Shown one piece after another: positions 14,773 through 54,436 of a DNA stretch of 64,000 nt. The notes below the pieces were generated by a model. It made no database searches, was not told the DNA's origin, and saw only the letters and a program-made list of their open reading frames with translations. A program made the position numbers and the translations under genes. This DNA is from Candidatus Aenigmatarchaeota archaeon. GTDB lineage: Archaea; Aenigmatarchaeota; Aenigmatarchaeia; CG10238-14; SCSR01. Where the stretch lies: positions 1,521-65,520 of the forward strand of contig JACQIA010000002.1 in NCBI GenBank assembly GCA_016198705.1, in the 5' to 3' direction. How positions within the stretch are numbered: position 1 is the first letter of the stretch; each line of letters starts with the position of its first letter.

Positions 14773-14814
14773 AAATTAAGTTTGCTTTGTCAGAATAAAA
14801 ACTTCTCACTCATT

Positions 14815-15072: not shown

Positions 15073-15073
15073 T

Positions 15074-15232: not shown

Positions 15233-15286
15233 TACATCACTTGGTTTAATTAAGTTAAAATCGTTAATTTTAATAGATTACTAAAG

Positions 15287-16286: not shown

Positions 16287-16362
16287 ATTATTATTTCACT
16301 CCTAAAATTAAAGAAATACAGCTAATGAAAGATATAAGTTGAGTTAAAATAAATCAATTAAC

Positions 16363-16563: not shown

Positions 16564-16565
16564 GG

Positions 16566-18023: not shown

Positions 18024-18220
18024 TTTCTACCTTATAATTATATAAGACAGTCTTGATTATCTTAGAAAGAAACAAAAAAGACAAAAAAGTCTTCATTTGC
18101 CTGAAATAAGCTAATTTAGACCCTATTTCACCACGGTAAAACATTATACCGATGTATATAATGGAGGATATACTTTATTAGTTTTTGCCTACAATAGAAA
18201 TTTAAAGCGGGTAGAACACT

Positions 18221-18877: not shown

Positions 18878-18883
18878 TTAAGT

Positions 18884-19204
18884 ATGAGAACTAAGGCACC
18901 CTATCAATTTACTCAAGAAGGTCACTATGGTAGATTTTTACGAGGACCTATTGATTTGAACGGGCATCCTATTTTTATTGATCCAAATGGACCTATGAGA
19001 AAAATAGTAGCAGAATTAGCAGAAAGACAACGCATTATATATGGAAATAATTTTGATGGGGTAACTATGTATTATGATGGTAGGTTAGTCTATGTAGATA
19101 GGAGAAAGCATAGAGGCGGAAGATCTGTGAGTAACAAACTATCAGTAGCCGACTCTTATTCAATGACAGAACTGACTGCACTTGTTGAAAAGGTTTTATC
19201 TTAA
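18884..19204 (+). CDS. Hypothetical protein, 106 aa, Arg/Gly-rich
   Basis: Complete ORF; no motif recognised; composition atypical for this genome. Confidence 0.35.
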   Translation: MRTKAPYQFTQEGHYGRFLRGPIDLNGHPIFIDPNGPMRKIVAELAERQRIIYGNNFDGVTMYYDGRLVYVDRRKHRGGRSVSNKLSVADSYSMTELTALVEKVLS

Positions 19205-20478
19205 GTCTTATTTAGGAAACTTACAAGTTCATGTAATTTCACTTCACTTTCCTTACCTTTTATCATGTCTTTTACCTTAACAAGATTTCTCCCCAATTCT
19301 TTCTTGCCAACAATTACAACGAAAGGTATTTCTAATGAATTAGCATATTCCAATTGATTTGATAATTTCCTGTCCATAATGTTAATATCAGCTCGAATGG
19401 AATTTCTTCTTAGACTTTGAACAATTTCGAATGCTTTGTCCTTTACACTATCGTCAACAATCGCAACATACACATCAACAGGGCAATATTTTTCAGCATC
19501 TACTACAACTTCCATCAATCTATCCACCCCAATTCCAAATCCAGTCGCAGGTAAATCCTGGCCGCCATATAAGCCAACCAAAGTATCATATCTTCCACCA
19601 GAGGCGACAGAACCGAAATCTTCTTCCCCCTCTACAAAAGTTTCAAAAACAAATCCAGTATAGTAATCAATTCCCCGTACTATGCTGAAATCTATTTTAA
19701 TGTTCTCAACACCCATCTTCTCTGCAAGCGATTTTATTCCTTTCAAGTCCTTTACTTCATCCGGTTTACCAGATTTTACAAGTTCTAAGAATTTGTCGAT
19801 GGAGTTGCTAGCAATTTTGTATTTTCCCAATTCACTCCTTACACCCTTCTCTCCTATTTTGCCTAACTTGTCTATTACTCTAAATACATCGAACTTTTTA
19901 CTTTCAGGAATTCCAGACTGCTTGATTAAACTCTCAACGATTTTTCTTGAGTTGATTTTAAAATAAAACTTTTTGATGCCAACAGACTTGAGCACATCAT
20001 AAACTACAGATAAAATTTCTGCATCGGCTTCAGGCTTGTTTGAGCCAATTAGTTCCACTCCAGCCTGCCAGAATTCACGCCAACGCCCTTTCCCTGGCTG
20101 GTCATATCTCCACATGTTTGTGATATAGCAGAATTTAATTGGTTTTGGCAATGAAGTATCAGATGCGACGATTCTGCATATAGACACTGTGGGGTCAAAC
20201 CTCAATCCCAGTTTTCTACCGGCTTTGTCTGTGAATACATAAATCTCATTTTCTATGTCAGGACCAGATTTTTTTGATAACAATTCGAAATCTTCAAATG
20301 CAGGCGTCCATACTTCGCCATATCCGTAGCCTTCAAACACTTTTCTTATCTTTTCAAAAACCTTTCTGCGTTTAGCCATCTCTTCTGGCAGGAAATCTCT
20401 TGTTCCCTTAGGAGGCTGGAATTTCATATTAGATATTTTTACTCTGTTGTTATTATCTTTAGAATAAGCACTAGCCAA
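19201..20478 (-). CDS. hisS: Histidyl-tRNA synthetase
   Basis: MKFQPPKGTRDFLPEE and class II motifs. The true start is probably the internal Met at about 20427 (MKFQPP...). Confidence 0.85.
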   Translation of the reverse strand: MASAYSKDNNNRVKISNMKFQPPKGTRDFLPEEMAKRRKVFEKIRKVFEGYGYGEVWTPAFEDFELLSKKSGPDIENEIYVFTDKAGRKLGLRFDPTVSICRIVASDTSLPKPIKFCYITNMWRYDQPGKGRWREFWQAGVELIGSNKPEADAEILSVVYDVLKSVGIKKFYFKINSRKIVESLIKQSGIPESKKFDVFRVIDKLGKIGEKGVRSELGKYKIASNSIDKFLELVKSGKPDEVKDLKGIKSLAEKMGVENIKIDFSIVRGIDYYTGFVFETFVEGEEDFGSVASGGRYDTLVGLYGGQDLPATGFGIGVDRLMEVVVDAEKYCPVDVYVAIVDDSVKDKAFEIVQSLRRNSIRADINIMDRKLSNQLEYANSLEIPFVVIVGKKELGRNLVKVKDMIKGKESEVKLHELVSFLNKT

Positions 20479-39701: not shown

Positions 39702-40499
39702 ATGGTATTAGAGAGATTAATTTCTATAAGCGACGCATTGAAGCATCCGGGGTGGATGTATATTATTGGCGGTGCTGTATCAGTACTGTGCCTTTTTATA
39801 TCATTTTTGATTTTCCCGCAATCAGTAGGATTGTTTACAACGTTTCTTATAACAATTGCGATGACACCCTTCATGGTAAGACTGATTACTTATGAGGAAG
39901 CTAGTACAGAGAAAGAAATTGAGGGCCATATAGAAGGGAATTTCTTTCAGAGGTACAGCAATGTTCTTTCAATATATTCAGCATTTTTTGCAGGCATGAT
40001 TACATTTCTCTCTATAGCTTTCTTGATTTTGCCAGACGTAACGGTTCAAAAACTATTTGAAGATCAGATAAAGGAAATAAATTTAATAAGGGGAAGTGTG
40101 ATTTTTGCCAGCACTTTTGAGAGAATAGTGGTTAATAACATAGGTGTCTTAATACTTTCTGTGATTCTTTCTTTCTTGTTTGGAGCAGGCGCTATATTCA
40201 TTCTGGCTTGGAATGCGTCTATATTATCTACTGCAATAGGCTTGACAGCAAAAAGTATAGGTGGCATCCACAGCTTGCCTATAGCAGTTTTGGTATATTT
40301 CCCCCACGGGAGTTTGGAAATTTTAGCCTATTTCATCGGGGCTATCGCCGGCGGTTTGGTTTCCGCAGCATTTACAAGAAAAGAGACGAGAATGTTCTGG
40401 CCAGTAGTAAAAGACGGCCTGATGCTTGTAGGAATAGCAATCGTCATTTTAATGGTTGCTGGGGTAATTGAAACGACCTCTATCGCCATATCAGGGTAG
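39702..40499 (+). CDS. SpoIIM-like (DUF95) membrane protein
   Basis: Polytopic; GAGAIFILAWNASIL and PHGSLEILAYFIGAIAGG are typical of DUF95. Confidence 0.5.
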   Translation: MVLERLISISDALKHPGWMYIIGGAVSVLCLFISFLIFPQSVGLFTTFLITIAMTPFMVRLITYEEASTEKEIEGHIEGNFFQRYSNVLSIYSAFFAGMITFLSIAFLILPDVTVQKLFEDQIKEINLIRGSVIFASTFERIVVNNIGVLILSVILSFLFGAGAIFILAWNASILSTAIGLTAKSIGGIHSLPIAVLVYFPHGSLEILAYFIGAIAGGLVSAAFTRKETRMFWPVVKDGLMLVGIAIVILMVAGVIETTSIAISG

Positions 40500-42989
40500 C
40501 TATTCTAAATATATTGCTGGCTTGCCGTACTTGGCTCTGGACACTTTATTTTCTGGATCGTATTTGTTTTTGTCAGAAGCTTTGAACAATTCTATTTTTT
40601 TGAACTTGAACAAATTTTTCAAATAGTTTGTTGCCTCTTTGAAATATTCGTATTCTTTATCGGTTACAAAATATAGGTAAGCATTTTTCTTTGTTCCAGT
40701 TAATCTCAAAACATGATTTAAATCTTCCTGTGTTTTTTTGAAAATATTCTCAAGTTCTATGGCAGTCTTGTCAATTTTCTTTGCATCCGCTTTTGGCCAA
40801 TATTCTAAAGAAACAAATTTCTTATTCCCCAACTCATGCCAAAGTTCTTCAGACGCATGAGGTATAATAGGTGAGAATAAAAGCACCAATAGCCCAAGAA
40901 TTTCTTTCAACGTCCTTTCGCTTATGGAGTTTCTATAAGTTTCAATCTCCCCCACAATTTCTTTCAACTCATTTATAACCGAAGGAAAGTTGAATTCACT
41001 AAAATCTTTTTCTATATTGCCTATAGCACTGTGCACTCTGCTTAGAATGTATTTGTCTCTAGAGTTATTTTCTGGATTATGTTTCTTAAATTGATTGGCG
41101 AATTTATTCAAAGTTCTATGGTAGGATGTCAATCCTTTGTCACTCCATTCAAATTCTTTAGCAGGCAAAGCTAGGCCCAACATAAACAAGCGAACAGAAT
41201 CTGCACTAAATTTCTTTATCATTTCTTCCGGATCCACAACATTCCCACGTGATTTTGACATGGCAAAGCCGCCTTTTAGTACCATACCCTGAGTTAAGAG
41301 ACGGTTGAAAGGTTCGTCCATTTCATGGAGGCCTATATCTCTTAATGCCTTTGTGAAAAACCTTGCATACAAGAGGTGCATTATTGCATGTTCTATCCCG
41401 CCGATATACTGGTCAACAGGCATCCAATAGCTTACAATCTTCTTGTCAAAAGGCAATTCATCATAATCAGGTGAGCAGTATCTGAAGAAGTACCAAGACG
41501 AATCAACGAAGGTATCCATAGTATCAGTTTCTCTTCGAGCATTTTTCTTACATTTCGGACATTTAGTAGCAACAAATTTCTTAGACGTTTCTAGAGGATT
41601 GCCTTTTCCAGTGAATTTGACATCAGTTGGTAATTTGACAGGCAAATATTCATAAGGCACAGGAACAATACCGCAATCGTTGCAATAAATAACTGGTATA
41701 GGTGTCCCCCAATATCTTTGTCTTGATATTAACCAATCACGGAGCTTGTAGTTTGTTATACGTTTTGCATTGTTATTGCTCACAAGCCATTCTGCTATCT
41801 TTGGCAGAGCTTCTACATTTTTAAGACCGTTGAACTGGTTGGAATTAATCATTGTTCCATTTTCTGTATACGCCTCTGTCAGCTGATCAACATCAAAATC
41901 AAGTTTGTCGGCAGGTCTTATTACAACTTTTAATGGCAAGCCGTATTTCTTTGCAAACTTGAAATCTCTTTTATCGTGCGCGTCGCACATAACCGCACCA
42001 GTTCCGTATTCCATAACTGCAAAGTTGGCCACCCATATAGGTATTTTTTCTTTGGATGCAGGATTGACTGCATATTTACCTATGAATACACCTTTCTTCT
42101 CCTTTTCCTCATTGAGTCTATCGATTGTACTTTCACCTATAGCTTTTAGTACAAATTCCTGCACTTCTTTATGGTACTTTGTCCCCTTAATTAATCTTTC
42201 AACTAATGGGTGTTCGGGTGCTAAAACAAGGAAAGTTACAGAAAATATAGTATCTGGTCGTGTTGTAAAAGTCGGTATTCTAACATCCATGCCCTCAACG
42301 GGAAAGAATATCTCAACACCTTCACTTTTCCCAATCCAATTCCTCTGCATAGTCTTAACATTTTCAGACCAATCCAATCGTTCCATATCTTCAAGCAGTT
42401 GATCAGCGTATTCTGTTATTTTGAAGAACCATTGTTCTAGTTCCTTCATTTCAACGCTAGAATGGCATCTCCAGCATTGTCCTTTATCAACCTGTTCATT
42501 TGCTAATACAGTTTTGCAGCTAGGGCACCAATTTACAGGAGCTTTTTTCTTGTAAGCCAACCCCCTTTCCAGAAATTTCAAAAATATCCATTGGTTCCAT
42601 TTGAAGTAGTTTGGATTGAACGACGCTATTTCCCTAGTCCAATCATAGCTTAATCCCAGCATCTTTTGTTGCTGTTTCATAGCCTTGATAGATTCTATAG
42701 TCCATTTTTCCGGACGAGTCTTGTATTTTATCGCTGCATTTTCAGCAGGCAGGCCAAATGCATCATAGCCCATAGGATATAATACATTGAATCCCATCAT
42801 TCGTTTGAATCTCGCATAAGCATCACCGATGACATAATTTCTCACATGTCCCATGTGTAGCTTGCCTGACGGATAAGGATACATTTCTAGATTGTAGAAT
42901 TTTTTCTTTTTTGGATTTACATTGGCTTCGAAGATTTTAGCCTTTTCCCATTTCTTCTGCCATTTCTGCTCTATTTTTTTGAAATCCAT
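40500..42989 (-). CDS. leuS: Leucyl-tRNA synthetase
   Basis: YPYPSGKLHMGHVRNYVIGD (HIGH region), MSKSRGN, CP1 editing region; 829 aa. Confidence 0.85.
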   Translation of the reverse strand: MDFKKIEQKWQKKWEKAKIFEANVNPKKKKFYNLEMYPYPSGKLHMGHVRNYVIGDAYARFKRMMGFNVLYPMGYDAFGLPAENAAIKYKTRPEKWTIESIKAMKQQQKMLGLSYDWTREIASFNPNYFKWNQWIFLKFLERGLAYKKKAPVNWCPSCKTVLANEQVDKGQCWRCHSSVEMKELEQWFFKITEYADQLLEDMERLDWSENVKTMQRNWIGKSEGVEIFFPVEGMDVRIPTFTTRPDTIFSVTFLVLAPEHPLVERLIKGTKYHKEVQEFVLKAIGESTIDRLNEEKEKKGVFIGKYAVNPASKEKIPIWVANFAVMEYGTGAVMCDAHDKRDFKFAKKYGLPLKVVIRPADKLDFDVDQLTEAYTENGTMINSNQFNGLKNVEALPKIAEWLVSNNNAKRITNYKLRDWLISRQRYWGTPIPVIYCNDCGIVPVPYEYLPVKLPTDVKFTGKGNPLETSKKFVATKCPKCKKNARRETDTMDTFVDSSWYFFRYCSPDYDELPFDKKIVSYWMPVDQYIGGIEHAIMHLLYARFFTKALRDIGLHEMDEPFNRLLTQGMVLKGGFAMSKSRGNVVDPEEMIKKFSADSVRLFMLGLALPAKEFEWSDKGLTSYHRTLNKFANQFKKHNPENNSRDKYILSRVHSAIGNIEKDFSEFNFPSVINELKEIVGEIETYRNSISERTLKEILGLLVLLFSPIIPHASEELWHELGNKKFVSLEYWPKADAKKIDKTAIELENIFKKTQEDLNHVLRLTGTKKNAYLYFVTDKEYEYFKEATNYLKNLFKFKKIELFKASDKNKYDPENKVSRAKYGKPAIYLE

Positions 42990-43191
42990 AGTTATCTTAA
43001 TTTTAATTATCCTATAATATTATTTATTCGAATCTATACTAATTATAAAATTATTGCAGATCTTTCCTCTGGGTTCCTCTGCCATAGCATCTTTTCATCC
43101 ATTAAAAGGAACAGTTCTAGGATCTCCACATGCATCCTCTTCTAAAACTTGTAAATGTTTTTCACATCAATCATTTAAAGATTTACAAAAA

Positions 43192-44490
43192 TCATCTATT
43201 GAAAAATTCTCTATGAAGAGATTCAACCGCTTGCCGTTCGTATCTTGGGTCTAGCATTATACCTATTGACGTTGAATGAGATTCGCCGGCATTAGGATCA
43301 TGAGTTCTTTGTATGTTTATACCTCTTAATGCACTATAAGCACGTTTAGCAATTCCTTTCGCATCACTCATGCCAGAACCCACAACACCTATGTACGAAA
43401 CTCTTTCTTGGTAAGTTATTTGAATTTCTTTTCTATCTACAGCATGATTTACAATAGCCTTAGCGAGCTCTCTTCCTCTTTCAGAAACACCAATTCCTAA
43501 CCCTCCTGGTATTCCTCCATAAGTAAACCAATCAATTGTTGGATTTCTATAAAGTTCACTAATAACACCTCTCCACTCTCCACGTATACCGTATGTATCT
43601 ACATCTCTAGACGCTATGAATCTCACAGTCTGCTTTTTGGCACCGGGATTAATCCTTGTTTTCCTTTGTCCATTCATTCCAGCTATGTAAACTTGTGAAT
43701 TGGGATGAGTTTCTAAAAATGTCTTAAGAGGTTCTACAGAGCTAGGAGTTCTCAAACTCGCACCGAAAAAGCCTGCAGCCCATGCTTCGTCCAAATCTAT
43801 TTCATCTACTACACGAGCACGGCCATACGGAGCAGTTGTTAATGCGTCTTCAGCAATAACCCATACAACATCTGCACCAAACGCATAAGCAGCTATAAAT
43901 GATGCGGTATCGCCCCCGCCTCTCCCAAGTGTCCTGGCAAGACCATCATTGAATACAGTATATCCTGGAACTACAATTACACCATCTCTCATAGGTATTC
44001 TTTCAGCAGCTTCTTTAGAACCTTCTAAATCTATTACAGCTTTTCTACGTTCTTCTTTTTGTCTTATGGGAAAATTTTGATGTTTATGATCTACAAGTGT
44101 GGAATTTATGCCCGACTGTACTAGGTAACTATTCAATACTTGTGCAGTTAGTTCGTATCCTGATGCAACTAATATCTCATCTATGTTATGACTCCTCCCT
44201 CCAAGAAGCATATTATCAAACTGTCTACATGCACTTTCAAAATTTGTAGTTAATCGGTTGTCATCTAGTTGTTGTATAAGAGCTTCATATGCTCCAAAAA
44301 CTTGACGCCCCTTCCTACCATTCCCTGCATCCAAAGTTTCTACTAATCTATCTGTAGTATCGCGTAAAGGAACAGTAACAATAACTATTCTGCCATTGTT
44401 ACCTTCCATTGCTTTAATCTGTCTAGAGATTCTTTCTAGATCAGCTGGTTCTTGAATAGTCTGGGGACCATATTTAATTATTGCTGTCAT
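43192..44490 (-). CDS. Aspartate kinase (amino-acid kinase domain + two ACT domains), compositionally foreign
   Basis: IIKYGPQT...VVPGYTVFNDGLARTLGRGGGDTASFIAAYAFGADVVWVIAEDALTTAPYGRARVVDEIDLDEAWAAGFFGASLRTPSSVEP matches aspartokinase signatures (GRGGSD, V-TD-GVYTADPR-V). C-terminal ACT domains IGVVGSGM and SIGIMLD. GC about 45% against about 33% nearby; Arg-rich and Lys-poor. Confidence 0.75.
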   Translation of the reverse strand: MTAIIKYGPQTIQEPADLERISRQIKAMEGNNGRIVIVTVPLRDTTDRLVETLDAGNGRKGRQVFGAYEALIQQLDDNRLTTNFESACRQFDNMLLGGRSHNIDEILVASGYELTAQVLNSYLVQSGINSTLVDHKHQNFPIRQKEERRKAVIDLEGSKEAAERIPMRDGVIVVPGYTVFNDGLARTLGRGGGDTASFIAAYAFGADVVWVIAEDALTTAPYGRARVVDEIDLDEAWAAGFFGASLRTPSSVEPLKTFLETHPNSQVYIAGMNGQRKTRINPGAKKQTVRFIASRDVDTYGIRGEWRGVISELYRNPTIDWFTYGGIPGGLGIGVSERGRELAKAIVNHAVDRKEIQITYQERVSYIGVVGSGMSDAKGIAKRAYSALRGINIQRTHDPNAGESHSTSIGIMLDPRYERQAVESLHREFFNR

Positions 44491-44807
44491 TTCCGATCAC
44501 TCAAGTAGAAAATTACTTTATTTAAGTTTCTTTTATGCAACCAGGTCCTCTGCTGCCTTGCAGAATCCTCCCCTATTGCCCCTTTGAATTAATCTTAAGA
44601 GCAGCTAGGGTAGAAAACATCCTATAGATATGAGTGGTAAAGTTACTTGCTAACGAATTTTTAGTACTTATTCCCCAACTCATTTAAAACACAAAATTTA
44701 TTTCTGTTATTATATTAAAAAAATATACTTTAAATAGTTTGCTGGGATTTTACTATTAACTATTTCATACAAAAGCTTCTATTAATTAATTGTTATAGTA
44801 GGTAAAT

Positions 44808-44911
44808 GCCTTCGTAGCTCAGCTTGGATAGAGCAGCTCACATGATTGGCTGAACCTTCTATCTGTCTGGGAGCAAGGAGAAGGTCGAGGGTTCAAATCC
44901 CTCCGAGGGCA
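44808..44911 (+). tRNA. tRNA, 104 nt, intron-containing; identity unresolved
   Basis: Acceptor GCCTTCG/CGAGGGC (one G-U); discriminator A; T-arm GAGGG-TTCAAAT-CCCTC; variable loop AGGTC; D-arm GCTC-AGCTTGGATA-GAGC. About 29 extra nt lie between position 26 and the variable loop, including a 6-bp helix CCTTCT/AGAAGG. No single canonical 37/38 intron gives a clean anticodon arm. Confidence 0.65.
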
Positions 44912-45871
44912 CTATTCTAAAATTGAAGAATCGAAAGCTACTGCTAAAGCTCCATATAGGACAACATCTTCACCCAATTGAGTTATTGCTACTTTAGGAA
45001 TTCTGTTCAGTGAATGTTTTGATAAATTTTTTATAATTGGATTTAAAATAAAATTCTCGTTTTTTAGGGCAACACTTCCACCTATTGTAATTAAAGAAAC
45101 ATCATACGCAGCATTGATATTGGAAATTCCAATAGCATTTACTTCTCCAATCTTTTCTAAAATTTCTAGACTCAATTCATCTTTTAATTTCACAGCTTCA
45201 AAAAACTTTTCAGAAGTCAAATTTGCAATATTGCCATTGCACAATTTTAAAATTAAACTATTCTTCAAGCGAGTATCATTTTTACCCAGCAACCTAACAA
45301 AATTAGGAATAGTTCTTCCAGAGCAATATGCTTCCCAATGTCCATATCCACCGCAACCGCATTTTAATTTACTGTTCAAATCAATTGTTAGATGGCCTAC
45401 TTCTGTTGCATTCCCGTCTTTGCCCAGAATCAATTTCCCATTTAAAACCACACCACAGCCTATACCGGTGCTTATTGTTAGATAAGCTAAATTCTCCTCT
45501 TTCTTTCCCAAGCCAAAACTTTTCTCGCCAATCACCCCAGCATCGCAATCGTTCACAAGGTATGTAGGAACATCGAACACGCCTTTTAATTGCTTAACTA
45601 TAGGAATGTTTTTGAAAGGTATGTGAACAGGATTCGACAATTCTCCTTTCTTTAAATCCAGCAATCCTATCGAACCTATACCAATTGCTGAGAAATCACT
45701 TTTTAAAGAATTAATCATTCTTACAATTTGTTTAGTAACAGAATTTTTGTCTTCAACGTCCAATTTTTCAGAAAGTTTATCTTTAACATTGCCATTCTCA
45801 TCTCCTAAACATACTCTAACGTTGGTGCCTCCAATATCGACTCCAACTGCGTATTTTGTCATCTCCATCAA
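44912..45871 (-). CDS. ROK-family sugar kinase (glucokinase-like)
   Basis: VGVDIGGTNVRV N-terminus and ROK zinc motif CGCGGYGHWEAYCSG; 319 aa. Confidence 0.75.
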   Translation of the reverse strand: MMEMTKYAVGVDIGGTNVRVCLGDENGNVKDKLSEKLDVEDKNSVTKQIVRMINSLKSDFSAIGIGSIGLLDLKKGELSNPVHIPFKNIPIVKQLKGVFDVPTYLVNDCDAGVIGEKSFGLGKKEENLAYLTISTGIGCGVVLNGKLILGKDGNATEVGHLTIDLNSKLKCGCGGYGHWEAYCSGRTIPNFVRLLGKNDTRLKNSLILKLCNGNIANLTSEKFFEAVKLKDELSLEILEKIGEVNAIGISNINAAYDVSLITIGGSVALKNENFILNPIIKNLSKHSLNRIPKVAITQLGEDVVLYGALAVAFDSSILE

Positions 45872-45890
45872 AATTAAACACGCATCTTGT

Positions 45891-47540
45891 TTAATTTATC
45901 CTCAATACAGCTGTATTGCATGTGCTAGTTGTGCACATCTTTAAAGTATGAGTGCCTTTTGATAATTGATTGTATATCTTCATTGTTGCTATTTCGCCTG
46001 GGTTTATTTGGGAGCCTGTGTCGTAATTGGCTTTAATTTCTTGTGCTGTCAGCGCCCGATTGTAAATCCTCACTTCATCTAGTTGTCCATTAAATTTGTT
46101 GAAGCCCGCAGTAACCGACCCCATAGCAAGAGGAACCCCTACATCGGACTGACCAACTCCTGTTGGAGTGAGTACCTCATCGAGGGGGAGCACTACTCCG
46201 TTCTTATAGAGTATGGGATCATTACCAACCGAATCTTGGTTATAAACTACGGTATAGAATGCTGGCGTACCAACCTCAACCGGTTGATTAACTGTTATCC
46301 ATTGACCGGTTCCTGTAGTGAAGAGTTTGACAAGGGCTAGATCCCTAGCAGTACCCGCGAAAGCAGATGAAAAATAGATTCTCCATCCTACACCATCATC
46401 CTTTCCAAGGATATCCATGTTATTGGCTGGCGGTGCAGTAGCAGATGCCCAAAATTCTACTGTTCCTCCTCCAACGAAAATATTTTGGATACTAGAATGA
46501 TCCGTGACAGAAACTATATCATTCACTCCGTCAAAAGCTTTAGCAGCCCCGTATTTCCCCTTTACAATATTATGCCTATCATTAGCGTCATTATTAAAAT
46601 TATACCACGCTACACTTCTGCTAACAGGATATGTATAATTCATATCTTCTTGGATTTCTGATTGTGACAATGCTCTGTTGTAAATGCGCACTTCGTCGAT
46701 GGTGCCGTTAAAATAGCTGCCTGCGTTTCCACCGTCATCCCTTTTTCCTATGGTAGCTGTTGTGGCTATTGTATTGATGGCTACGCTGAAAGTTCCGCTC
46801 GCGGCTGAAACGCCATTCAGATAATAGTTCCAAGCGCTTCCCGAAAGGGTGAATGCGACGTGATTCCAACTGCCGTTAGTTGGAAGCTGTGAGCCAGAAA
46901 TAATTATGTTGTTTGCGCCATTTATTCCGTCAGTAAAGACATAAATATTTCCCCCCACAGTAGCGAATTGAAATATGAAGCTTTGAGCAGCGGCGGCAAC
47001 GTTATTGAGGGCGAACACTGTTCCACCGGGATTCAATTTGTTGGGCATAATCCACGCCTCGATAGTCCTGCTGGAAGCGCCTATCGGAAGGTCAGTTATG
47101 CTGCTTACGTTGACATAATCATCCACACCGTCAAACTGCAATGCATTCCCATACTGCCCGCTAGCAAATCCAGCCCCATTTATCGTCCCGTCATTAAAAG
47201 TCTCCCCATTGAATGTTCCTGTGTTTCCTTTACCAGAAGAATCTGTAGCAGTTATCCTATCCAATTCATCCATCTTCCAATACCCAACCGAAGAATTATC
47301 CTGCTTAGACATACGATAAACAGCATCACTCCCGTCTATCTTCACACTTCTAAAAGCAGTTATCGGCGCAGTCCCGTCATTGCTTATGGTAACAGTATCG
47401 CTGAACGCATCAACCACATAAAACACTTCAGCAGTCTTTGTAGTAAACACACCAGAAATATAAGTATAGCTGAATCCAAACAAGCCAATTGTGATTATCA
47501 GCACTAGTAAAGTAGCTATAATTGAGGAAATGCCTTTCAT
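45891..47540 (-). CDS. Pilin-signal surface protein with two LamG/ConA-like lectin domains (putative adhesin)
   Basis: N-terminus MKGISSIIATLLVLIITIGLFGFSY is a class III signal. The two LamG signatures are GNALQFDGVDDYVNV...IEAWI...NHVAFT...GTIDEVRIYNRALSQSEI and later GQLDEVRIYNRALTAQEI. Confidence 0.7.
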   Translation of the reverse strand: MKGISSIIATLLVLIITIGLFGFSYTYISGVFTTKTAEVFYVVDAFSDTVTISNDGTAPITAFRSVKIDGSDAVYRMSKQDNSSVGYWKMDELDRITATDSSGKGNTGTFNGETFNDGTINGAGFASGQYGNALQFDGVDDYVNVSSITDLPIGASSRTIEAWIMPNKLNPGGTVFALNNVAAAAQSFIFQFATVGGNIYVFTDGINGANNIIISGSQLPTNGSWNHVAFTLSGSAWNYYLNGVSAASGTFSVAINTIATTATIGKRDDGGNAGSYFNGTIDEVRIYNRALSQSEIQEDMNYTYPVSRSVAWYNFNNDANDRHNIVKGKYGAAKAFDGVNDIVSVTDHSSIQNIFVGGGTVEFWASATAPPANNMDILGKDDGVGWRIYFSSAFAGTARDLALVKLFTTGTGQWITVNQPVEVGTPAFYTVVYNQDSVGNDPILYKNGVVLPLDEVLTPTGVGQSDVGVPLAMGSVTAGFNKFNGQLDEVRIYNRALTAQEIKANYDTGSQINPGEIATMKIYNQLSKGTHTLKMCTTSTCNTAVLRIN

Positions 47541-47668
47541 AATCCATTATTGTTTTTTAAATTAAAATGGGGTTGCCGAGTTTAGTATGATTTGCAATAA
47601 GCGCAATTAATGTTGAAAATTGGAAATAGCATAAACCTTTTTACTTCCAAAACCAAATCTAATCTATA

Positions 47669-48436
47669 ATGTCACGAACAATAGGTATTCTCGCTGGAAA
47701 AGGTGGCGTCGGAAAGACTACTCTAACAGCCAACTTAGGATATGCTTTAACTGAACTAGGCAATAAAGTAACACTTGTCGATGCAAATCTTACAACACCG
47801 CATCTGGGGTTTCATCTAGGCATGCATTTAGTTCCAAAAACTTTGCATGACGTATTGCGCGGATATACTTCTGTAAGAAATGCAACTTATGTTCATCCTT
47901 TGGGGTTTAAAGTAATTCCAGGCAGCATTTCTGTCAAGGATTTGGTTAATGTAGACATAGCAAAACTTTCAAATGTGACATCCCATCTTTCAGACAAGTC
48001 AGATTTTATTTTACTGGATTGTGCACCATCTTTGGGCAGGGAAGCTATTACAGCGCTGCAAGCTACAGATGAAGTGCTTATAGTGACAAATCCAGACTTG
48101 CCATCGGTTGCAGACGCTTTGAAGACATTGAAATTTGCACAAAAAACTGGAAAAATATTTTCAGGTGCTGTTTTGAACAGAGTTAAATGGGGCTCTGGTG
48201 AATTGAAGAAATCAGAAGTAGAGGAAATTCTTGGCTCGCGTATCATAGCAGAAATACCAGAAGATAAAAATGTACCAAAATCTATCGCAGCTAAAACTCC
48301 TGTCTTAGACTTTTCCACAAATTCTCCAGCCTCAACTGAGATTAGAAGATTAGCGCATCATTTAGTTGGCAAAGAATACAATATAAGAACAAACTATGGT
48401 TTTCTTGACTGGCTAGTTGGGTGGATGACTAAATAG
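47669..48436 (+). CDS. minD: MinD/ParA-family ATPase
   Basis: AGKGGVGKTTLTANLG deviant Walker A; 255 aa. Confidence 0.7.
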   Translation: MSRTIGILAGKGGVGKTTLTANLGYALTELGNKVTLVDANLTTPHLGFHLGMHLVPKTLHDVLRGYTSVRNATYVHPLGFKVIPGSISVKDLVNVDIAKLSNVTSHLSDKSDFILLDCAPSLGREAITALQATDEVLIVTNPDLPSVADALKTLKFAQKTGKIFSGAVLNRVKWGSGELKKSEVEEILGSRIIAEIPEDKNVPKSIAAKTPVLDFSTNSPASTEIRRLAHHLVGKEYNIRTNYGFLDWLVGWMTK

Positions 48437-50081
48437 AGTCTAAATTCACTTCAAAAGCAGCAACTGGTATTTCTAAATTCCAATTTTCCAATACAACAGG
48501 ATTTATTTCTCCAATAACACCTATTTGCTTTCCTTCAACCAAAACACTAGCAACTCTGCCATTGAGGAATGAGTTATGTTCAACAGCTTTCAATTTATAC
48601 TTAACGCCGGCATTCGAGAGAAACGCATCCAACATAGAAGAAATTTCTTGATAGCCGGCATTGCTGTCAGCGATTGCACATGCCAACTTTCTAACATCCC
48701 TAGTTTTAGTTTCTTTACTCTCATCAATAAGTACAGCATCGCCAATTTCAAAAATCTTCTGCGGATATTCCACGTGTTTGTTTGCCGAAAGGAATTCTAA
48801 TAAACTTGGCAATAGCCAATTTCTAAAAACATTCCAATTGTCCGACACAGCATTTTCTATACCCACAATTCTTTCTTCCTTTAAATTCATTTTATCAAAA
48901 AGATTTTTGCTATTTGTCAAAGTATAGGATAAGACTTCTTGCAGCCCCAATCCAACCATTATTTCCGCAATCTTGCCCGATAATTTTTCTATTTCACTTT
49001 CACTCCCAACTGTAGGAAGTTTAGGAGTTACAGGCTCAATTTTGTTATACCCAAAAGAAATTATCACATCCTCAACAACATCCCTTTGATGCATTATATC
49101 TTGTCTATAAGCTGGGTACACAACTTCTATTTTACTTCCTTTTATTTTTGCATCATACCTGGCTTGCCCCAGCAAATTAGTTATTTGTTTCTCATTCAAA
49201 TGCAACCCAGAAATTTTATTCAAATATTCTATATCTACAGATGATTTTCTGGGTGTTAAATCTGGTGGTACGATTGTTTTATCCGGATAAGCAACTTTGA
49301 CTGTCTCTATTCTTGCCCCTCTATCAGCTAAAGCGCAAGCCATTACATTCAAAGCCGGGAGCAAAAACTTCAGGTTAAAACCAGAACATTCCAAAAATAT
49401 ATTTTTAGTTTTCTCAGTAATTTGGCCTGAATTATTGGAATTAATTATTGGCGGTATTGAAAGAACTTCACCTTTTGCATCTATGAAAATCGGATACTCT
49501 TTATATCCAGCTAACAAATGTCCAAATTCTTTACCTTTTGGATGTTTTTCTAAAATTTCCTTAGGTGTTAATTCTTCTCGGAATTCTAGCGGTACAAATT
49601 TTATGCCGTCAGGCTTTACCGTAGTGAAATTTATGGGGGATTTTATTTTATCTAAATCGTAATATCCTGATGAAAACTCCCTCCTATTTCTGCCGAACGT
49701 TTGGTCGACTTTTACTTGTAATTGGATTAGTTGCGACAACGCTTCCTTATTTAATTTTAAATTTCTAGCGACCACACAAACTGTGTATGGCCTAACACTT
49801 TTCATCTTCTTATCCACTTTGATAACGACATTAGAATTTCCAACAGAATATTTAGGACAGCCAACATTTTTCGTGTATCTGCCTTGAATTTCTCTTGCTA
49901 TTCCTTCAGCAGACCACAAATCTGGCCGGTTGGTGTCTTTTACATCAATTTTCAATAGATCTCCATCTACTGCATCGATCTCTCCCTTCGCAAATAATAT
50001 AGCATCTTTCAGTTCCTCTACAGAAAGCTTTCTTCCTACCAAATTACACAAATCTTTGTAAGAAACTTCTATTTTCGGCAT
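48429..50081 (-). CDS. pheT: Phenylalanyl-tRNA synthetase beta subunit (archaeal type)
   Basis: 550 aa; N-terminus MPKIEVSYKDLCNLVGRKLS, B3/4 and B5 domain architecture; adjacent to pheS. Confidence 0.8.
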   Translation of the reverse strand: MPKIEVSYKDLCNLVGRKLSVEELKDAILFAKGEIDAVDGDLLKIDVKDTNRPDLWSAEGIAREIQGRYTKNVGCPKYSVGNSNVVIKVDKKMKSVRPYTVCVVARNLKLNKEALSQLIQLQVKVDQTFGRNRREFSSGYYDLDKIKSPINFTTVKPDGIKFVPLEFREELTPKEILEKHPKGKEFGHLLAGYKEYPIFIDAKGEVLSIPPIINSNNSGQITEKTKNIFLECSGFNLKFLLPALNVMACALADRGARIETVKVAYPDKTIVPPDLTPRKSSVDIEYLNKISGLHLNEKQITNLLGQARYDAKIKGSKIEVVYPAYRQDIMHQRDVVEDVIISFGYNKIEPVTPKLPTVGSESEIEKLSGKIAEIMVGLGLQEVLSYTLTNSKNLFDKMNLKEERIVGIENAVSDNWNVFRNWLLPSLLEFLSANKHVEYPQKIFEIGDAVLIDESKETKTRDVRKLACAIADSNAGYQEISSMLDAFLSNAGVKYKLKAVEHNSFLNGRVASVLVEGKQIGVIGEINPVVLENWNLEIPVAAFEVNLDSI

Positions 50082-51338
50082 TCACATCACTTTTTGATTT
50101 CTTAACCACTCTAAATTTTGGCTAAATAAATGGCGTATATCCTGCAAATTTAGTTTGAACATCGCTAACCTGTCAATACCAATACCCCATGCTAAAACTG
50201 GCACATCTACACCTAGAGGATTAGTTAATTCTTCCCTAAAGATTCCAGAACCACCAAATTCAATCCACCCTAGATTAGGATGCAATGCTGACAGTTGGCA
50301 TGAAATTTCCGTGAATGGATAGTAATCTGGTAAAAATTTTACTTTTTCAGCTCCAGCAATTTCAATCGCAAACATCTTTAAAATCCCGAGCAAATGTTTG
50401 AAATTCAAGCTCTCATCAAGCACTATACCTTCAGTTTGATTAAATTCAACTCCGTGCGTAGCATCTATGATATCCGGTCTAAAACACCTAACCATTGCAA
50501 AATACTTCCCTGGAATTTTCGGTTTGTCTGCTAACGTCCTCGCTGATAGTGCAGTACCATGTGCCCTAGGCATTAATTGCATAGCTTTTCTAGGATCCCA
50601 TCTATATCCCCAACCACTGCTGCCAGCTATGCCCTTTTCATGTGCTTTCTTGACATTCTCAGCGATTTTTTTATTTATACTTCCAAACTTTGGATATTTT
50701 AATTGATATGTCTGCGTCCAATCTCTTGCAGGATGGTTTTGCGGCTGATAAAGACTATCAAAATTCCAAAACTCAGTTTCAATCAGCGGACCAGCCATTT
50801 CTTCAAAGCCCAATTCAACCAACTTCTGTCTTACTTGCTTTAAAAATTGATTGTAAGGTTGTCTTTTGCCTGTATAGATTTTCTTTCCCGTGATTTCTAC
50901 ATTATAGGACTTGAATTTAACTTGTTTCCAAATTCCAGTTTTCAATAATTCAGATGTAAGGTTTGTTATCTCTTTGCCAATCAGTTTGTCCACATCGCCA
51001 ATTACAGCCTTCTCAACTAATTTTCTTTGGAGCAATGTTTCCAACAATTTGTCGTCTACACTTTCATTTTTAGCTATTCTTTCTAGAGCTTTTTGTTCAT
51101 GTATATCTACAGGCATCTTAACAAGAAAAATTTCATCATGATCTCTATCAATCCAGCCTTTATCCATCGCCCACTTTAAACCAATAGAAAAATTCTTTAC
51201 ATGTGCAATTGCTTTCTCTATCTTGATGGATTTCTTGGGGTTGTTATTCAGAAATTCTACTAGAGTTTTTTCTGGCAGACCTTTTTCTAAATAGTCTTTA
51301 CCTTCTTGTGTCAACCTGTAGTAGATTTCTTTAGACAT
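50082..51338 (-). CDS. pheS: Phenylalanyl-tRNA synthetase alpha subunit
   Basis: Class II motifs; C-terminus GIGIDRLAMFKLNLQDIR; 418 aa. Confidence 0.8.
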   Translation of the reverse strand: MSKEIYYRLTQEGKDYLEKGLPEKTLVEFLNNNPKKSIKIEKAIAHVKNFSIGLKWAMDKGWIDRDHDEIFLVKMPVDIHEQKALERIAKNESVDDKLLETLLQRKLVEKAVIGDVDKLIGKEITNLTSELLKTGIWKQVKFKSYNVEITGKKIYTGKRQPYNQFLKQVRQKLVELGFEEMAGPLIETEFWNFDSLYQPQNHPARDWTQTYQLKYPKFGSINKKIAENVKKAHEKGIAGSSGWGYRWDPRKAMQLMPRAHGTALSARTLADKPKIPGKYFAMVRCFRPDIIDATHGVEFNQTEGIVLDESLNFKHLLGILKMFAIEIAGAEKVKFLPDYYPFTEISCQLSALHPNLGWIEFGGSGIFREELTNPLGVDVPVLAWGIGIDRLAMFKLNLQDIRHLFSQNLEWLRNQKVM

Positions 51339-51339
51339 A

Positions 51340-52458
51340 TTAATCTCTCAACATGAACTTCTCTATATGATCTTTAGCCTTATCTTTTTTCTTTCGGTGT
51401 TCCTTCAAAAATTTGTTTATTACTTCAATCGTTAATTCCTTTAGTTCGCCAGTCAACATTTTTCCCGATTTGTAATCCTCATAAATTTGTTTTAGTTTTT
51501 TGTCATCTTCAAGATAGTATGTTAAATATTGATATGATACATCAACATCCGGCATACCACCCTTTTTCCTATGATCTTCTACAGTATCCCTGCCTCCCGA
51601 GAATGCATATCTTAAAATTTTATTTTTAACTTGCTCAGGCTTGTCATTAGTGAAAATTGCTGTATTTTCTATCGATGTAGACATTTTCCCTCCTTCTGCT
51701 AAGCTTGGCAAAAACCTGCAAAGTATTGTTGCTGGTTTAGAATATCCAATCTTTGGTGCTATATCTCTTGTCAATCGGAAATGAACATCTTGATCTATGG
51801 CGCATGGAATTAAGCATTGTGTAGTTTTACCTTCGATTACAGTTGGCAAGAATGCTGGTACTGACTGCATGGTTGTGTAAAATAATTCGCCCAGATTGTT
51901 GGAATCTGTAAATCCAAATAATGCTTTAGCAGTAGACAATGTAGTTTTCTTTGCTGCTAAGCACGCATATTTGTACATATGGCCTGCGTATTCTGTATCT
52001 AAAAATATTTTTGTTTTCTTTGGATCAAAACCTACTGCAACAATATCGAGTATGTTCTCATAAGCCCATTTTTTCGTATCCTCTAAAGTCAAGCCTTCCT
52101 TGAAGAAAAACTTTTCTTCGTCTGGTATTTGGAATAGCAAAGGGACGTCTAAATTCTCCTGCAGCCATTTGCAGAATATCCATGGAATTAGATGACCTAA
52201 GTGAACCGGTCCAGAAGGTGCTCTGCCTGTGTAAAGATAGAATTTCTTTTTCTTTTCCACATCATCTAAAATAGAATCAAAATACATGTGTGCAAAGAAT
52301 ATCTTCCTCTTGAGAAAATAATGCAGTTTACCAGCAAGTTTTTCCAATCTCTTCAAAATAACCTCGTCAAGAGGTTTGACACCGAACTGTTTTATCAACC
52401 TATCATAATCTATGTCACCCTTTACTTCCCATGGTGTCACTACAAATTCTTTTGCCAT
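51340..52458 (-). CDS. trpS: Tryptophanyl-tRNA synthetase (archaeal/eukaryotic type)
   Basis: HLGHLIPW (HIGH-like), GGKMSTSIENTAIF (KMSxS); 372 aa. TyrRS is less likely on size and the KMSTS form. Confidence 0.65.
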   Translation of the reverse strand: MAKEFVVTPWEVKGDIDYDRLIKQFGVKPLDEVILKRLEKLAGKLHYFLKRKIFFAHMYFDSILDDVEKKKKFYLYTGRAPSGPVHLGHLIPWIFCKWLQENLDVPLLFQIPDEEKFFFKEGLTLEDTKKWAYENILDIVAVGFDPKKTKIFLDTEYAGHMYKYACLAAKKTTLSTAKALFGFTDSNNLGELFYTTMQSVPAFLPTVIEGKTTQCLIPCAIDQDVHFRLTRDIAPKIGYSKPATILCRFLPSLAEGGKMSTSIENTAIFTNDKPEQVKNKILRYAFSGGRDTVEDHRKKGGMPDVDVSYQYLTYYLEDDKKLKQIYEDYKSGKMLTGELKELTIEVINKFLKEHRKKKDKAKDHIEKFMLRD

Positions 52459-52601
52459 ACGTATCCAATTAAAATTAAATTTTATAATGCAAATCCTTAT
52501 AGTTTATATGTTCCCAACATTCCCAAGATTAAGTTGCTTTTGGACAAAAATTCTGGCCATTGACAAACCTTAAATAACTATTACACCCAAATACAGAAAA
52601 T

Positions 52602-53192
52602 ATGGCAGCTTTTAAATTTGTAATTTCCGAACCTTCTACTAAAAAATCATTCCAGAAGGAAGTAGACCAGGCCAAAGCTATTTCTTTGGTCAACAAAAAA
52701 ATCGGTGACGAATTCCCAGGCGATATCCTCGATTTACACGGTTATAGTTTACAGATTACTGGCGGGACTGATAAAGATGGATTTCCAATGCACCCGTCAG
52801 TCAAAGGCTCTGTCAAGAAAAGGGTTTTGCTTAATAGCCCCCCTGGGTTTCATCCAAAAATAAAGGGGCAGAGAAAAAGAAAGACCGTGCGAGGCGATTC
52901 TGTATCCACAGACATAACACAGATAAATGTCAAAGTGACCAAAAAAGGAGAAAAATCTTTGGAAGAGTTAGTGCCGATGAAACTTAAAGAGAAGAAGGAT
53001 GAGACAAAGCAGGAGAAACTTGCAGAGAAAAAAGAAGAAAAGCATGCTGAAGCTAAAAAAGAGCCTGAGGCAAAGCCTGCAACCAAGAGTGAAGCCAAAG
53101 AAGAAAAACCTGCCGAACAGAAAGAAGCGAAAGAAGTTGCAGAAAAACCAAAAGAGCAGAAAATTGAACAGCCGAAAGAGGCTAAAGCTTAA
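52602..53192 (+). CDS. rps6e: Ribosomal protein S6e with Lys/Glu-rich C-terminal extension
   Basis: MAAFKFVISEPSTKKSFQKEV compares with the S6e N-terminus; the low-complexity tail is KEEKHAEAKKEPEAKPATKSEAKEEKP. Confidence 0.8.
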   Translation: MAAFKFVISEPSTKKSFQKEVDQAKAISLVNKKIGDEFPGDILDLHGYSLQITGGTDKDGFPMHPSVKGSVKKRVLLNSPPGFHPKIKGQRKRKTVRGDSVSTDITQINVKVTKKGEKSLEELVPMKLKEKKDETKQEKLAEKKEEKHAEAKKEPEAKPATKSEAKEEKPAEQKEAKEVAEKPKEQKIEQPKEAKA

Positions 53193-53227
53193 ACTCTTTC
53201 TTTACTATTCTAAATTTTAACATTGGG

Positions 53228-54436
53228 GTGGACAAATTAAAAGAAATCAATCCAAAAATGGTACCAGAATGTAACATAGGTACTTTGGGACATGTAAGCC
53301 ATGGTAAAACAAGCTTAGTTGCGGCACTTACTGGTAAAATAACATTAACCCATTCAGAAGAATTGAAGCGTGGAATAACCATTCGCCTAGGTTATGCTGA
53401 TGCAACCATCTACCGATGTATAAAATGCAATAGGTATTCTACTACTAACAAATGCCCTTATTGTTTTTCTGATTCTGAAATAATTAGGACGATAAGTTTC
53501 GTAGATGCACCAGGGCATGAGACATTGATGGCAACAGTGCTGACAGGAGCAAGTTTGATGGATGGTGTATTATTCGTAATTGCAGCCAACGAAAAATGTC
53601 CCCAACTGCAGACAAAAGAGCATTTAGCTGTTTTAGAAATAGCAGAAATCAAAAATGCTATAATTATACAAAATAAGATTGATACGGTTTCAGAAGAAAG
53701 GGCTTTGAAAAGCTACGAAGAAATAAAAGATTTTGTAAGAGGAAGTATATTGGAAGAAGCGCCAATTATTCCTGTATCCGCCCAATACAAAACAAACATA
53801 GATGTGGTTTTGGAAGCAATGGAAAAATTTATTCCCACTCCCAATAGAGGAGAATCAAACGAGCCTAAAATGCTTGTTGCTAGAAGTTTTGACATAAACA
53901 AGCCAGGGGCAAAACCTGAAAAATTGGTCGGTGGAATACTTGGAGGGGCAATATTATCTAGTAAGTTTTCTGTAGGCGAAAAAGTAGAAATAAGACCGGG
54001 TGTGAAGATCGGGAATAAGTATCAACCGTTATTTGCAAAGATAGTTGGTTTGAAGAAGGCTGGAATAAATCTTGATGTTGCTGGCGCAGGTGGTCTTTTG
54101 GGCTTGATGACGACATTAGACCCGTCTTTAACAAAATCTGATTCTTTAGTTGGCAATGTCGTGGGTTTGCCAAATAAGATGCCAGAATCAAAAGAAACCA
54201 TCTCGCTTAAAATAACCTTTCTAAATAGGGCTGATGCGTCGAATGTTAAGGTAAATGAAATAATTTTAATTAATGTGGGGACTGCAAGGTCGGTTGGAAC
54301 TGTATCCAGTGTTAAGAAAGAAACTATAGAAATGAAGTTGAAAATACCGGTTTGCGTGGAAGAAAAAGAAAAGGTAGCAATATCCAGGCAGATAGATGGA
54401 AGATGGAGACTAGTAGGTTATGCTATTACAGCTTAA
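53228..54436 (+). CDS. eif2g: Translation initiation factor aIF-2 gamma
   Basis: GHVSHGKTSLVAALTG G1 motif and a Zn-knuckle (CIKCNRYSTTNKCPYC); 402 aa. Confidence 0.85.
   Translation: MDKLKEINPKMVPECNIGTLGHVSHGKTSLVAALTGKITLTHSEELKRGITIRLGYADATIYRCIKCNRYSTTNKCPYCFSDSEIIRTISFVDAPGHETLMATVLTGASLMDGVLFVIAANEKCPQLQTKEHLAVLEIAEIKNAIIIQNKIDTVSEERALKSYEEIKDFVRGSILEEAPIIPVSAQYKTNIDVVLEAMEKFIPTPNRGESNEPKMLVARSFDINKPGAKPEKLVGGILGGAILSSKFSVGEKVEIRPGVKIGNKYQPLFAKIVGLKKAGINLDVAGAGGLLGLMTTLDPSLTKSDSLVGNVVGLPNKMPESKETISLKITFLNRADASNVKVNEIILINVGTARSVGTVSSVKKETIEMKLKIPVCVEEKEKVAISRQIDGRWRLVGYAITA

Follow-up and report, generated by a model that had tools for sequence, protein, structure and literature searches.

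A 64,000-nucleotide stretch of DNA from a Candidatus Aenigmatarchaeota archaeon (assembly GCA_016198705.1, contig JACQIA010000002.1, positions 1,521 to 65,520 of the forward strand; hereafter the window) contains a gene for an aspartokinase-like (AK-like) protein of unusual amino-acid composition next to a tRNA gene. This raises the question of whether the gene was acquired recently from elsewhere, as a first-pass annotation of the sequence had proposed, or belongs to the lineage, and of what its product may still do. The window protein is a 100% match to an NCBI entry (P0001) titled 'MAG: aspartate kinase [Candidatus Aenigmarchaeota archaeon]' (MAG, metagenome-assembled genome), and because that identical protein lies on a contig of 65,586 bp, the window spans nearly the entire contig of a DPANN archaeon. 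The evidence favors, with a probability of about 0.6, a gene that encodes a vertically inherited, fast-evolving and lineage-specific member of the aspartokinase family, which would be a still functional kinase-fold remnant of a lysine locus.

We examined the domains and the predicted fold of the AK-like protein (coordinates of all features are given in Table 1). Pfam recognized the amino-acid-kinase domain in the N-terminal part and a single ACT domain, ACT_9 (residues 367-429; 29.4 bits, cut-off 27). An AlphaFold2 model, for which an alignment of 46 sequences was the input, reached a predicted local distance difference test (pLDDT) score of 92.3 and a predicted template modeling (pTM) score of 0.91. 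In a Foldseek search of this model against the PDB, the best 42 matches were all aspartokinases, with template modeling (TM) scores of at most 0.78. The top matches were the enzymes of A. thaliana (2CDQ), M. jannaschii (3C1M/2HMF) and E. coli (2J0W), at 17-19% identity and TM scores of 0.77-0.78, and the next families, carbamate kinase and glutamate 5-kinase, followed with E-values about 17 orders of magnitude worse. The two ACT domains named in the first-pass annotation are both present in the model, the second of them as a predicted domain that Pfam does not detect. The protein had also been placed firmly in the aspartokinase family, and this stands for fold and domain architecture and fails at the level of sequence, where all curated cut-offs were missed. 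Fold and architecture make the modeled protein an aspartokinase, while in sequence it is a distant outlier.

The active site was mapped by aligning the clade of the query (P0001-P0011, see below) to E. coli LysC, whose sequence was checked to be 100% identical to PDB 2J0W. The clade retains, in the numbering of the query, K6 (LysC K8), T46 (T45), Y177 (F184), R190-G-G (R198-G199-G200) and D194 (D202). The loop that carries the substrate-carboxylate Arg and the catalytic Asp reads GRGGGD and aligns to GRGGSD of solved aspartokinases; all clade members have its R, G, G and D, and K6 as well. In E. coli LysC, aspartate is held by Glu119 (alpha-amino group), Arg198 (alpha-carboxylate) and Thr45 (PMC5481828). 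The first-pass annotation had quoted GRGGGD together with VIAEDALTTAPYGRARVVDEIDLDEA (residues 211-236) as the catalytic region. Both stretches are present, and the second of them is a remodeled version of the canonical WTDVxGxxTxDP...GAKVLHP.

We compared the composition of the gene with that of the window. The product is Arg/Gly/Ala-rich and Lys-poor, as had been noticed by eye (R 8.8%, K 3.5%, G 10.0%, A 8.8%), and its R/(K+R) ratio of 0.72 is the highest among 50 window open reading frames (ORFs). The reported contrast of 45% GC in the gene against 33% in its neighbors was not reproduced: GC content is 39.3% in the gene, 37.8% in the window, 37.1% in the flanking leucyl-tRNA synthetase (LeuRS) gene and 34.2% in the flanking ROK gene, and a profile in 1-kb windows has no peak at the gene. 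By codon position, GC1 is 53%, GC2 is 44% and GC3 is 20.8%, the last being the lowest of the 50 ORFs and lower than expected from the amino-acid content (observed minus expected, z = -2.2). With GC1 and GC2 raised and GC3 lowest, the slight GC excess is due entirely to amino-acid content. Under the codon usage of the window, the synonymous choices of the gene have an above-average likelihood (z = +0.6), and AGA, the main Arg codon of the host, accounts for 24 of its 38 Arg codons, showing host-like choice rather than a foreign codon composition.

The same bias was found in the orthologues, with R/(K+R) ratios of 0.48-0.72 against 0.15-0.37 for soluble housekeeping neighbors. It holds in genomes of 37% to 58% GC, and the GC3 of the orthologues is usually below that of their neighbors too. 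Since the bias is common to orthologues at any host GC, the unusual, Arg-rich and Lys-poor composition characterizes the protein family rather than the DNA. An amino-acid bias read by eye can pass for foreign composition, and it is GC3, codon choice and synteny that decide.

To describe its distribution, we refer to P0001-P0011 as the query's clade and to P0013-P0038 as the second tier of a wider family. A word-indexed search of 5.8 billion proteins returned only ten close homologues (45-63% identity), the named ones all from Aenigmarchaeota. When 1.84 billion representatives were searched exhaustively with HMMER, the second tier was added, which matched over the full length at 27-32% identity and 75-175 bits; the first clearly canonical match, a bifunctional aspartokinase-homoserine dehydrogenase (AK-HSDH), scored 67 bits, below the second tier. 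Two named second-tier members were looked up, and both belong to Aenigmarchaeota. Clade-specific peptide patterns had four carriers among 185,579 species genomes, three of them Aenigmatarchaeota and one an 'uncultured archaeon'. Besides the window's own assembly, GCA_016187385.1 (which includes a 786-kb contig), GCA_016181005.1 and GCA_016193585.1 carry the clade. In a neighbor-joining tree, which is a distance method only, bootstrap support was 100/100 for each of two splits, that of the clade itself and that of clade and second tier together against canonical aspartokinases. Nesting within a bacterial clade, proposed as a check of foreign origin, was not observed, as the tree sets the clade and second tier apart from canonical bacterial and archaeal aspartokinases alike. 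The best solved-structure relative is the archaeal M. jannaschii enzyme. Our literature search on aspartokinase in Aenigmarchaeota or DPANN found nothing relevant. From these sequence comparisons we define here a discrete, previously unnamed family in Aenigmarchaeota with a predicted aspartokinase fold.

We then compared gene order. In contigs L001 (GCA_016187385.1), L002 (GCA_016181005.1) and L007, the order eIF2gamma, S6e, tyrosyl-/tryptophanyl-tRNA synthetase, phenylalanyl-tRNA synthetase (PheRS) alpha, PheRS beta, ParA, AK-like, LeuRS, SpoIIM is the mirror image of window positions 39702-54436, where the block at 47669-54436 was assigned by comparison with Pfam-annotated loci. L012, L040 and L047 repeat the core of that order, bringing to at least six the other contigs that have ParA - tRNA-Arg - AK-like - LeuRS. 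A related arrangement occurs in L038 (PheRS alpha/beta - ParA - HhH-GPD - AsnC next to AK), whose AK is a family member with canonical motifs in the same block as the query's clade. The window protein is 46-51% identical to its syntenic orthologues, and the neighbors span 36% (LeuRS) to 67% (PheRS). The ratio of nonsynonymous to synonymous substitution rates (dN/dS) was 0.21 at a dS of 0.27 in the closest pair available (L012 and L047, 88% identical), and private substitutions at otherwise conserved positions number 8 in the query and 6-14 in its clade-mates. Aenigmarchaeota homologues, shared synteny, neighbor-like divergence and the low dN/dS together indicate that the gene was vertically inherited and is under purifying selection, and we regard its vertical descent and functional constraint as very probable. 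The proposal of a recent horizontal acquisition is refuted by this grouping with Aenigmarchaeota relatives in a conserved housekeeping gene order.

The adjoining tRNA gene was confirmed. Default ARAGORN found no tRNA. With introns allowed, it called a tRNA-Asp(GTC) with one intron, which we rejected because removal of two inserts gives a perfect tRNA-Arg(UCU). The two putative introns lie at 44840-44854 (non-canonical, in the anticodon stem) and 44862-44875 (canonical, 37/38), and the spliced product is a canonical 75-nt tRNA-Arg(TCT) that is 96% identical to the uninterrupted tRNA between ParA and the AK-like gene in L001. L002 and L007 likewise carry, at the corresponding place, a match to the 3' 53-55 nt of the tRNA (model positions 21/23-75). 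The presence of tRNA-Arg at the same place in relatives indicates that its position is ancestral gene order and not an integration landmark for the AK-like gene.

The tRNA and the AK-like gene are separated by a conserved non-coding element, which has a TATA-rich bidirectional promoter region in front of it. Its core, AAAGGGGCRRTAGGGGAGGATTCTG...CAGAGGACC, is 45 nt long and invariant in 11 aligned copies, and nhmmer found 13 distinct copies, each co-oriented with the next ORF. The element keeps its slot 5' of LeuRS in contigs without the AK-like gene, adjoining tRNA-Arg in L042 and L044 and at a distance of 1.0 kb in L043. Because the element is also present where the gene is absent, the idea of a 5' leader dedicated to that gene was rejected. 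A known RNA family was also rejected, with no Rfam match even at E = 10, and RNAalifold and pair counting gave a structured RNA no statistical support, as they found no covariation beyond that of shuffles. The element may or may not regulate the AK-like gene, whose own putative promoter could be the TATA-like box CTTAAATAAAG closer to its start codon. In L001, two copies bracket the gene as direct repeats, and recombination between them would be a simple route to gene loss.

What fills the slot between this element and LeuRS varies. Only small ORFs are found there in L042, L043 and L046, and an unrelated 457-462-aa protein occupies it in L041 and L045. This protein was ruled out as a hyper-divergent aspartokinase, as it had no profile, Pfam or NCBIfam match. 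L045 lacks the AK-like gene although its ROK, ParA and PheRS beta proteins are 77-79% identical to those of the window. The Arg-rich, Lys-poor composition extends to all slot occupants, be they AK-like proteins, the 457-462-aa protein or small ORFs: their R/(K+R) ratios are 0.48-1.0, compared with 0.19-0.38 in the flanks, and GC3 is low in each. One further reading makes the element a new archaeal cis-regulatory RNA for downstream Lys-poor genes and the AK-like gene an orphan lysC descendant, remodeled and no longer biosynthetic. It builds on the co-orientation of 13 of 13 copies and on the L001 locus, where one copy stands before each gene set, and if it were true, the Lys-poor, Arg-rich downstream genes would fit a set expressed when lysine is scarce, in which the AK-like gene would have been retained as one component. 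We consider it rather improbable.

The less divergent members of the family connect it to lysine biosynthesis. In LysC numbering, the second tier keeps K8, G10, G11, S39, A40, T45, E119, F/Y184, R198, G199, G200, S201 and D202, as well as T221, D222, G225 and K257; only the TxDP motif is missing. In L036, genes for AsnC and class-I lysyl-tRNA synthetase (LysRS) are divergent from a family AK - DapA - DapB cluster. The family member P0174 and a DapB, P0284 (84% identical to the DapB of L036), both have 4,741 bp as the length of their longest contig, and they may thus lie together on a second contig of this kind. LysRS is followed by AK in L037, LysRS and AsnC stand beside AK in L009, and LysRS lies three genes upstream in L008. 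The canonical residues and the dapA-dapB, LysRS and AsnC neighbors of the second tier indicate descent of the family from a lysine-branch aspartokinase. From these sequence data we infer that the family arose from the aspartokinase of a lysine/diaminopimelate locus and that the query's clade is orthologous to it by position. The diaminopimelate link, one of the roles suggested in the first-pass annotation, was seen for these other family members and not for the window gene, and in the query's clade the dapA-dapB, LysRS and AsnC neighbors are gone.

Other loci of the phylum carry aspartokinases outside this family. An Aenigmarchaeota MAG (GCA_016180945.1, L048, positions 6352-19489) has LysRS next to AsnC - DapA - DapB - AK - Asd - aminotransferase - DapF, and also a homoserine dehydrogenase and a second divergent kinase; both of its kinases fall outside the family. 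DapB homologues are common in other DPANN MAGs. In an Aenigmatarchaeota MAG (JBDRJK010000014.1, L031, positions 7984-11296), a canonical aspartokinase is divergent from a DeoC/LacD-family aldolase (AroA'-like) and a dehydroquinate synthase II (AroB'), two enzymes of the archaeal dehydroquinate route that consumes aspartate semialdehyde. This suggests another use of aspartokinase in the phylum. A link of the window gene to the 6-deoxy-5-ketofructose 1-phosphate (DKFP)/dehydroquinate route was set aside, as the L031 aspartokinase is outside the query's family and no such genes were found near family members.

Several observations weigh against a retained, functional member of the aspartokinase family. 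None of the 23 NCBIfam models reached its curated aspartokinase cut-off (TIGR00656, 97.3 bits against 402; TIGR00657, 93.2 against 208.7). Positions that are invariant in the aligned canonical enzymes are replaced in the clade: G11 by N/S (Pro9 in the query), S39 by V/T/G/A (V40-P41 at the S39-A40 loop of the query), T221 by A (A213), G225 by A (A216) and K257 by R (S245 in the query). The query also has Tyr112 at the position of LysC E119, with Glu113 next door. The gene is absent from its slot in the related contigs L041-L046, where it must therefore be dispensable, and the grouping of the family could be inflated by long-branch attraction in the distance tree. The absence of amino-acid biosynthesis partners nearby, already pointed out in the first-pass annotation, was confirmed, as asd, dap, hom and aro genes were found neither among the 43 window ORFs scanned with Pfam nor in the compared synteny block, nor in the flanks, ~75 kb in all, of the clade loci L001, L002, L005 and L007. 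A search for DapB returned many DPANN proteins, none on clade contigs, and was uninformative because more than 120 hits scored alike. Finally, a comparative study reported the phylum to be without de novo amino-acid biosynthesis (PMC8407114). Its supplements contain no K00928, K00133 or aspartate-kinase entries, and the L048 locus shows that the reported lack is not universal in the phylum.

Beyond these replacements, the glycine loop of the query reads K-Y-G-P-Q-T against the canonical KFGG(T/S)S, and in the clade D222 is replaced by E (E214), D230 of TxDP is absent and one residue is deleted. The canonical residues at G11, S39, T221, G225 and K257 are kept by nearly all members of the intermediate family, and K257 varies in three canonical sequences also (R, E and S). 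The altered region is not degenerate: residues 206-250 are the most conserved segment of the clade, with a mean conservation of 0.79, 17 of 45 positions invariant and a peak at VDEIDLDEAWAAGFFGA. Such conservation of the remodeled segment fits an active site that was changed and then fixed better than it fits decay.

This bears on an alternative in which the protein, after loss of the dap/lysine genes, became an orphan with a new function, either a kinase for another substrate or phosphoryl donor or an ACT-based amino-acid sensor. The exchange of glycine-loop and nucleotide-site residues in a region that is yet the most conserved of the clade would be expected of such a protein, and so would purifying selection at a dN/dS of 0.21, the lost dapA-dapB, LysRS and AsnC neighbors and the reported absence of amino-acid biosynthesis from the phylum (PMC8407114). 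Replacement of E119 shifts the substrate preference of LysC and has yielded engineered malate kinases (PMC5481828), and it is at this position that the query has Tyr. On the other side, R198, T45, K8 and D202 are kept and the residue at 119 is acidic in most clade members (E or D in the other nine), pointing to the same type of substrate. Moreover, the search for asd covered the window and the clade flanks, so that orphan status is presumptive. Glycine loops departing from K-x-G-G or KFGG are tolerated in the amino-acid-kinase superfamily and are normal in some of its enzymes. We regard a neofunctionalized orphan as a serious but unlikely alternative. A decaying relic with little or no function could be suspected from the lack of the gene in the slot of related contigs and from private changes of the query at functional positions (A40 to P, Y at the E119 position, S at the K257 position). 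It is very improbable in the face of an intact ORF with N- and C-termini conserved across the clade, the low dN/dS, the very high-confidence predicted fold and conservation equal to that of housekeeping neighbors.

Foreign origin was considered in a recent and an ancient form. For a recent, unameliorated acquisition next to the tRNA one can cite the top R/(K+R) ratio of the window, the adjoining tRNA gene, the varying content of the slot between the element and LeuRS, and the two element copies that bracket the gene in L001. Against it stand the host-like GC, GC3 and codon choice, orthologues in the same order in at least six contigs with neighbor-typical divergence, named clade carriers that are all Aenigmarchaeota, and a tRNA at the same place in relatives; variable presence among contigs would also be explained by repeat-flanked loss. 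We give this reading almost no weight. An ancient transfer of the family or clade from a GC-rich donor, with synonymous sites ameliorated since, would account for raised GC1 and GC2 with depressed GC3, for the deepest clade member, P0011, which is found in a GC-rich genome in a different context, and for other slot occupants with the same Arg-rich, Lys-poor signature. No donor group is visible, however, the family forms its own long branch, and the best solved-structure relative is archaeal. The composition is kept under purifying selection across very different GC contents, which fits functional constraint equally well. Such a transfer appears improbable, though less so than decay or a recent arrival.

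If the gene is, as we favor, a vertically inherited aspartokinase-family member, its product would still be a functional enzyme of the amino-acid-kinase fold. It would bind an alpha-amino dicarboxylate, most likely aspartate, through R190, T46 and an acidic residue at 112/113, K6 and D194 would carry out phosphate transfer, and the paired ACT domains would place the enzyme under allosteric control by an amino acid. With its remodeled glycine loop and nucleotide pocket, the enzyme may depart from the canonical one in catalytic efficiency, in phosphoryl donor or even in substrate, and aspartokinase activity itself may or may not be retained. If asd is encoded elsewhere in the genome, the enzyme could feed a residual diaminopimelate/lysine route or another route from aspartate semialdehyde; if the genome has no asd, it would be an orphan kept for another role. 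A working aspartokinase with ACT feedback that supplies aspartate semialdehyde to genes elsewhere in the genome has, in our view, less than an even chance.

The loci can be arranged in a series from the full locus of L048 through AK - DapA - DapB in L036 and AK beside LysRS/AsnC to the lone AK-like gene, which would be a case of reductive evolution in DPANN. Should the gene be an orphan, it would be the surviving first enzyme of a pathway that lost its pathway neighbors and canonical nucleotide-site motifs and kept purifying selection. Such a case, in host-dependent archaea reported to be without amino-acid biosynthesis, is concrete and testable.

The neighboring genes were also examined. LeuRS, directly downstream, is of the bacterial type in the window and in L012 and of the archaeal type in L001 and L045 (TIGR00395, 942-969 bits); that of L047 is archaeal by its N-terminal sequence. 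The first 31 LeuRS codons are common to both types at 84-90% DNA identity, with a junction near 42897, and past codon 31 genes of one type are still 82-88% identical in DNA sequence, against 56% for genes of different types. The pattern suggests xenologous replacement in place, with a chimeric 5' end left behind. The bacterial-type LeuRS, the neighbor that would truly have been replaced, has a fully host-like composition. Between ParA and the tRNA, the window has a ROK gene and a LamG gene, both absent from L001, L002 and L007, and L045 has only ROK. In composition, the LamG gene stands out from the window more than the AK-like gene does, and the hydrophobic N-terminal segment of its product may be a pilin-type signal. 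The highest GC of the window, up to 48% at 5501-6500, falls in a gene for a 568-aa protein with a Peptidase_S74 'chaperone of endosialidase' domain. Near it (1394-6874) are genes for a D12 adenine methyltransferase, a PD-(D/E)XK nuclease and a weak ParB-like protein, and this segment may be mobile or virus-derived.

Table 1. Features of the AK-like locus, with positions in the window unless another contig is named.
Feature	Position	Strand	Basis or remark
AK-like coding sequence	43192..44490	-	Intact ORF, 432 aa + stop
Amino-acid-kinase domain, residues 1-256	43723..44490	-	Pfam PF00696, 54.7 bits against cut-off 24.9
C-terminal regulatory region, residues 276-432, two predicted ACT-like beta-alpha-beta-beta-alpha-beta units	43195..43665	-	Model secondary structure and full-length structural alignment
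GRGGGD motif, residues 189-194	43909..43926	-	Substrate-carboxylate and catalytic-Asp loop
Remodeled nucleotide-site region, residues 208-249, VVWVIAEDALTTAP...VDEIDLDEAWAAGFFGASLRTP	43744..43869	-	Replaces WTDVxGxxTxDP...GAKVLHP
TATA-like box CTTAAATAAAG, putative	44516..44526	-	26-36 nt 5' of ATG, read from sequence
Conserved non-coding element, ~170 nt	44541..44707	-	Between tRNA and AK-like gene, co-oriented with the latter
Other element copies	L001 9795-9967 and 11371-11514; L007 8742-8915; L012 1282-1454; L040-L047		nhmmer
tRNA-Arg(UCU)	44808-44911	+	Rfam tRNA, 104 nt, 44.5 bits; upstream of and divergent from AK-like gene, 317 bp away
Slot occupants	Window 43192-44490; L045 5482-6870; L041 153-1526; L042 683-1479; L046 140-734; L001 11634-12237; L047 1834-2208		
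Leucyl-tRNA synthetase	40500..42989	-	Bacterial type, TIGR00396 leuS_bact, 960.8 bits against cut-off 548; directly downstream, synteny partner
ROK-family glucokinase	44912-45871	-	Between ParA and tRNA
LamG-domain protein	45891-47540	-	43.2% GC; between ParA and tRNA

We compared the AK-like protein with known systems. Glutamate 5-kinase, N-acetylglutamate kinase, carbamate kinase and UMP kinase share the kinase fold with it and lack the double ACT module, and their Foldseek E-values are ~1e-8 to 1e-9 against ~1e-27 to 1e-25 for the best aspartokinases. The monofunctional aspartokinases (LysC/Ask, EC 2.7.2.4; 3C1M/2HMF, 2J0W and 2CDQ) resemble it in fold, domain order and length, and the AK-like protein keeps their catalytic Lys and Asp, the GRGG-x-D loop and the substrate-holding Thr and Arg. 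It differs from them in the replacement of the second Gly of KFGG and of S39, T221, G225, D230 and K257, in the Tyr at E119, in its 17-19% identity to the solved structures with scores below the equivalog cut-offs, and in having no pathway partner nearby. The malate kinases engineered from E. coli LysC (PMC5481828) are without the acidic alpha-amino ligand, as is the query at Y112, but they carry G/A/S/C there and not Tyr, and the query has an adjacent Glu and the other clade members E/D; the likeness is a lead only. The lysC-type aspartokinases of Aenigmarchaeota (P0176, P0174, P0013, P0023 and P0026) fall by the tree in the same discrete family as the query. Outside the clade they match it best, with full-length identities of 27-32%; they also have the PheRS - ParA - AK block in common with it and tend to a similar Arg/Lys bias. 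Unlike the query's clade, they retain the canonical residues except TxDP and stand beside dapA-dapB, LysRS and/or AsnC.

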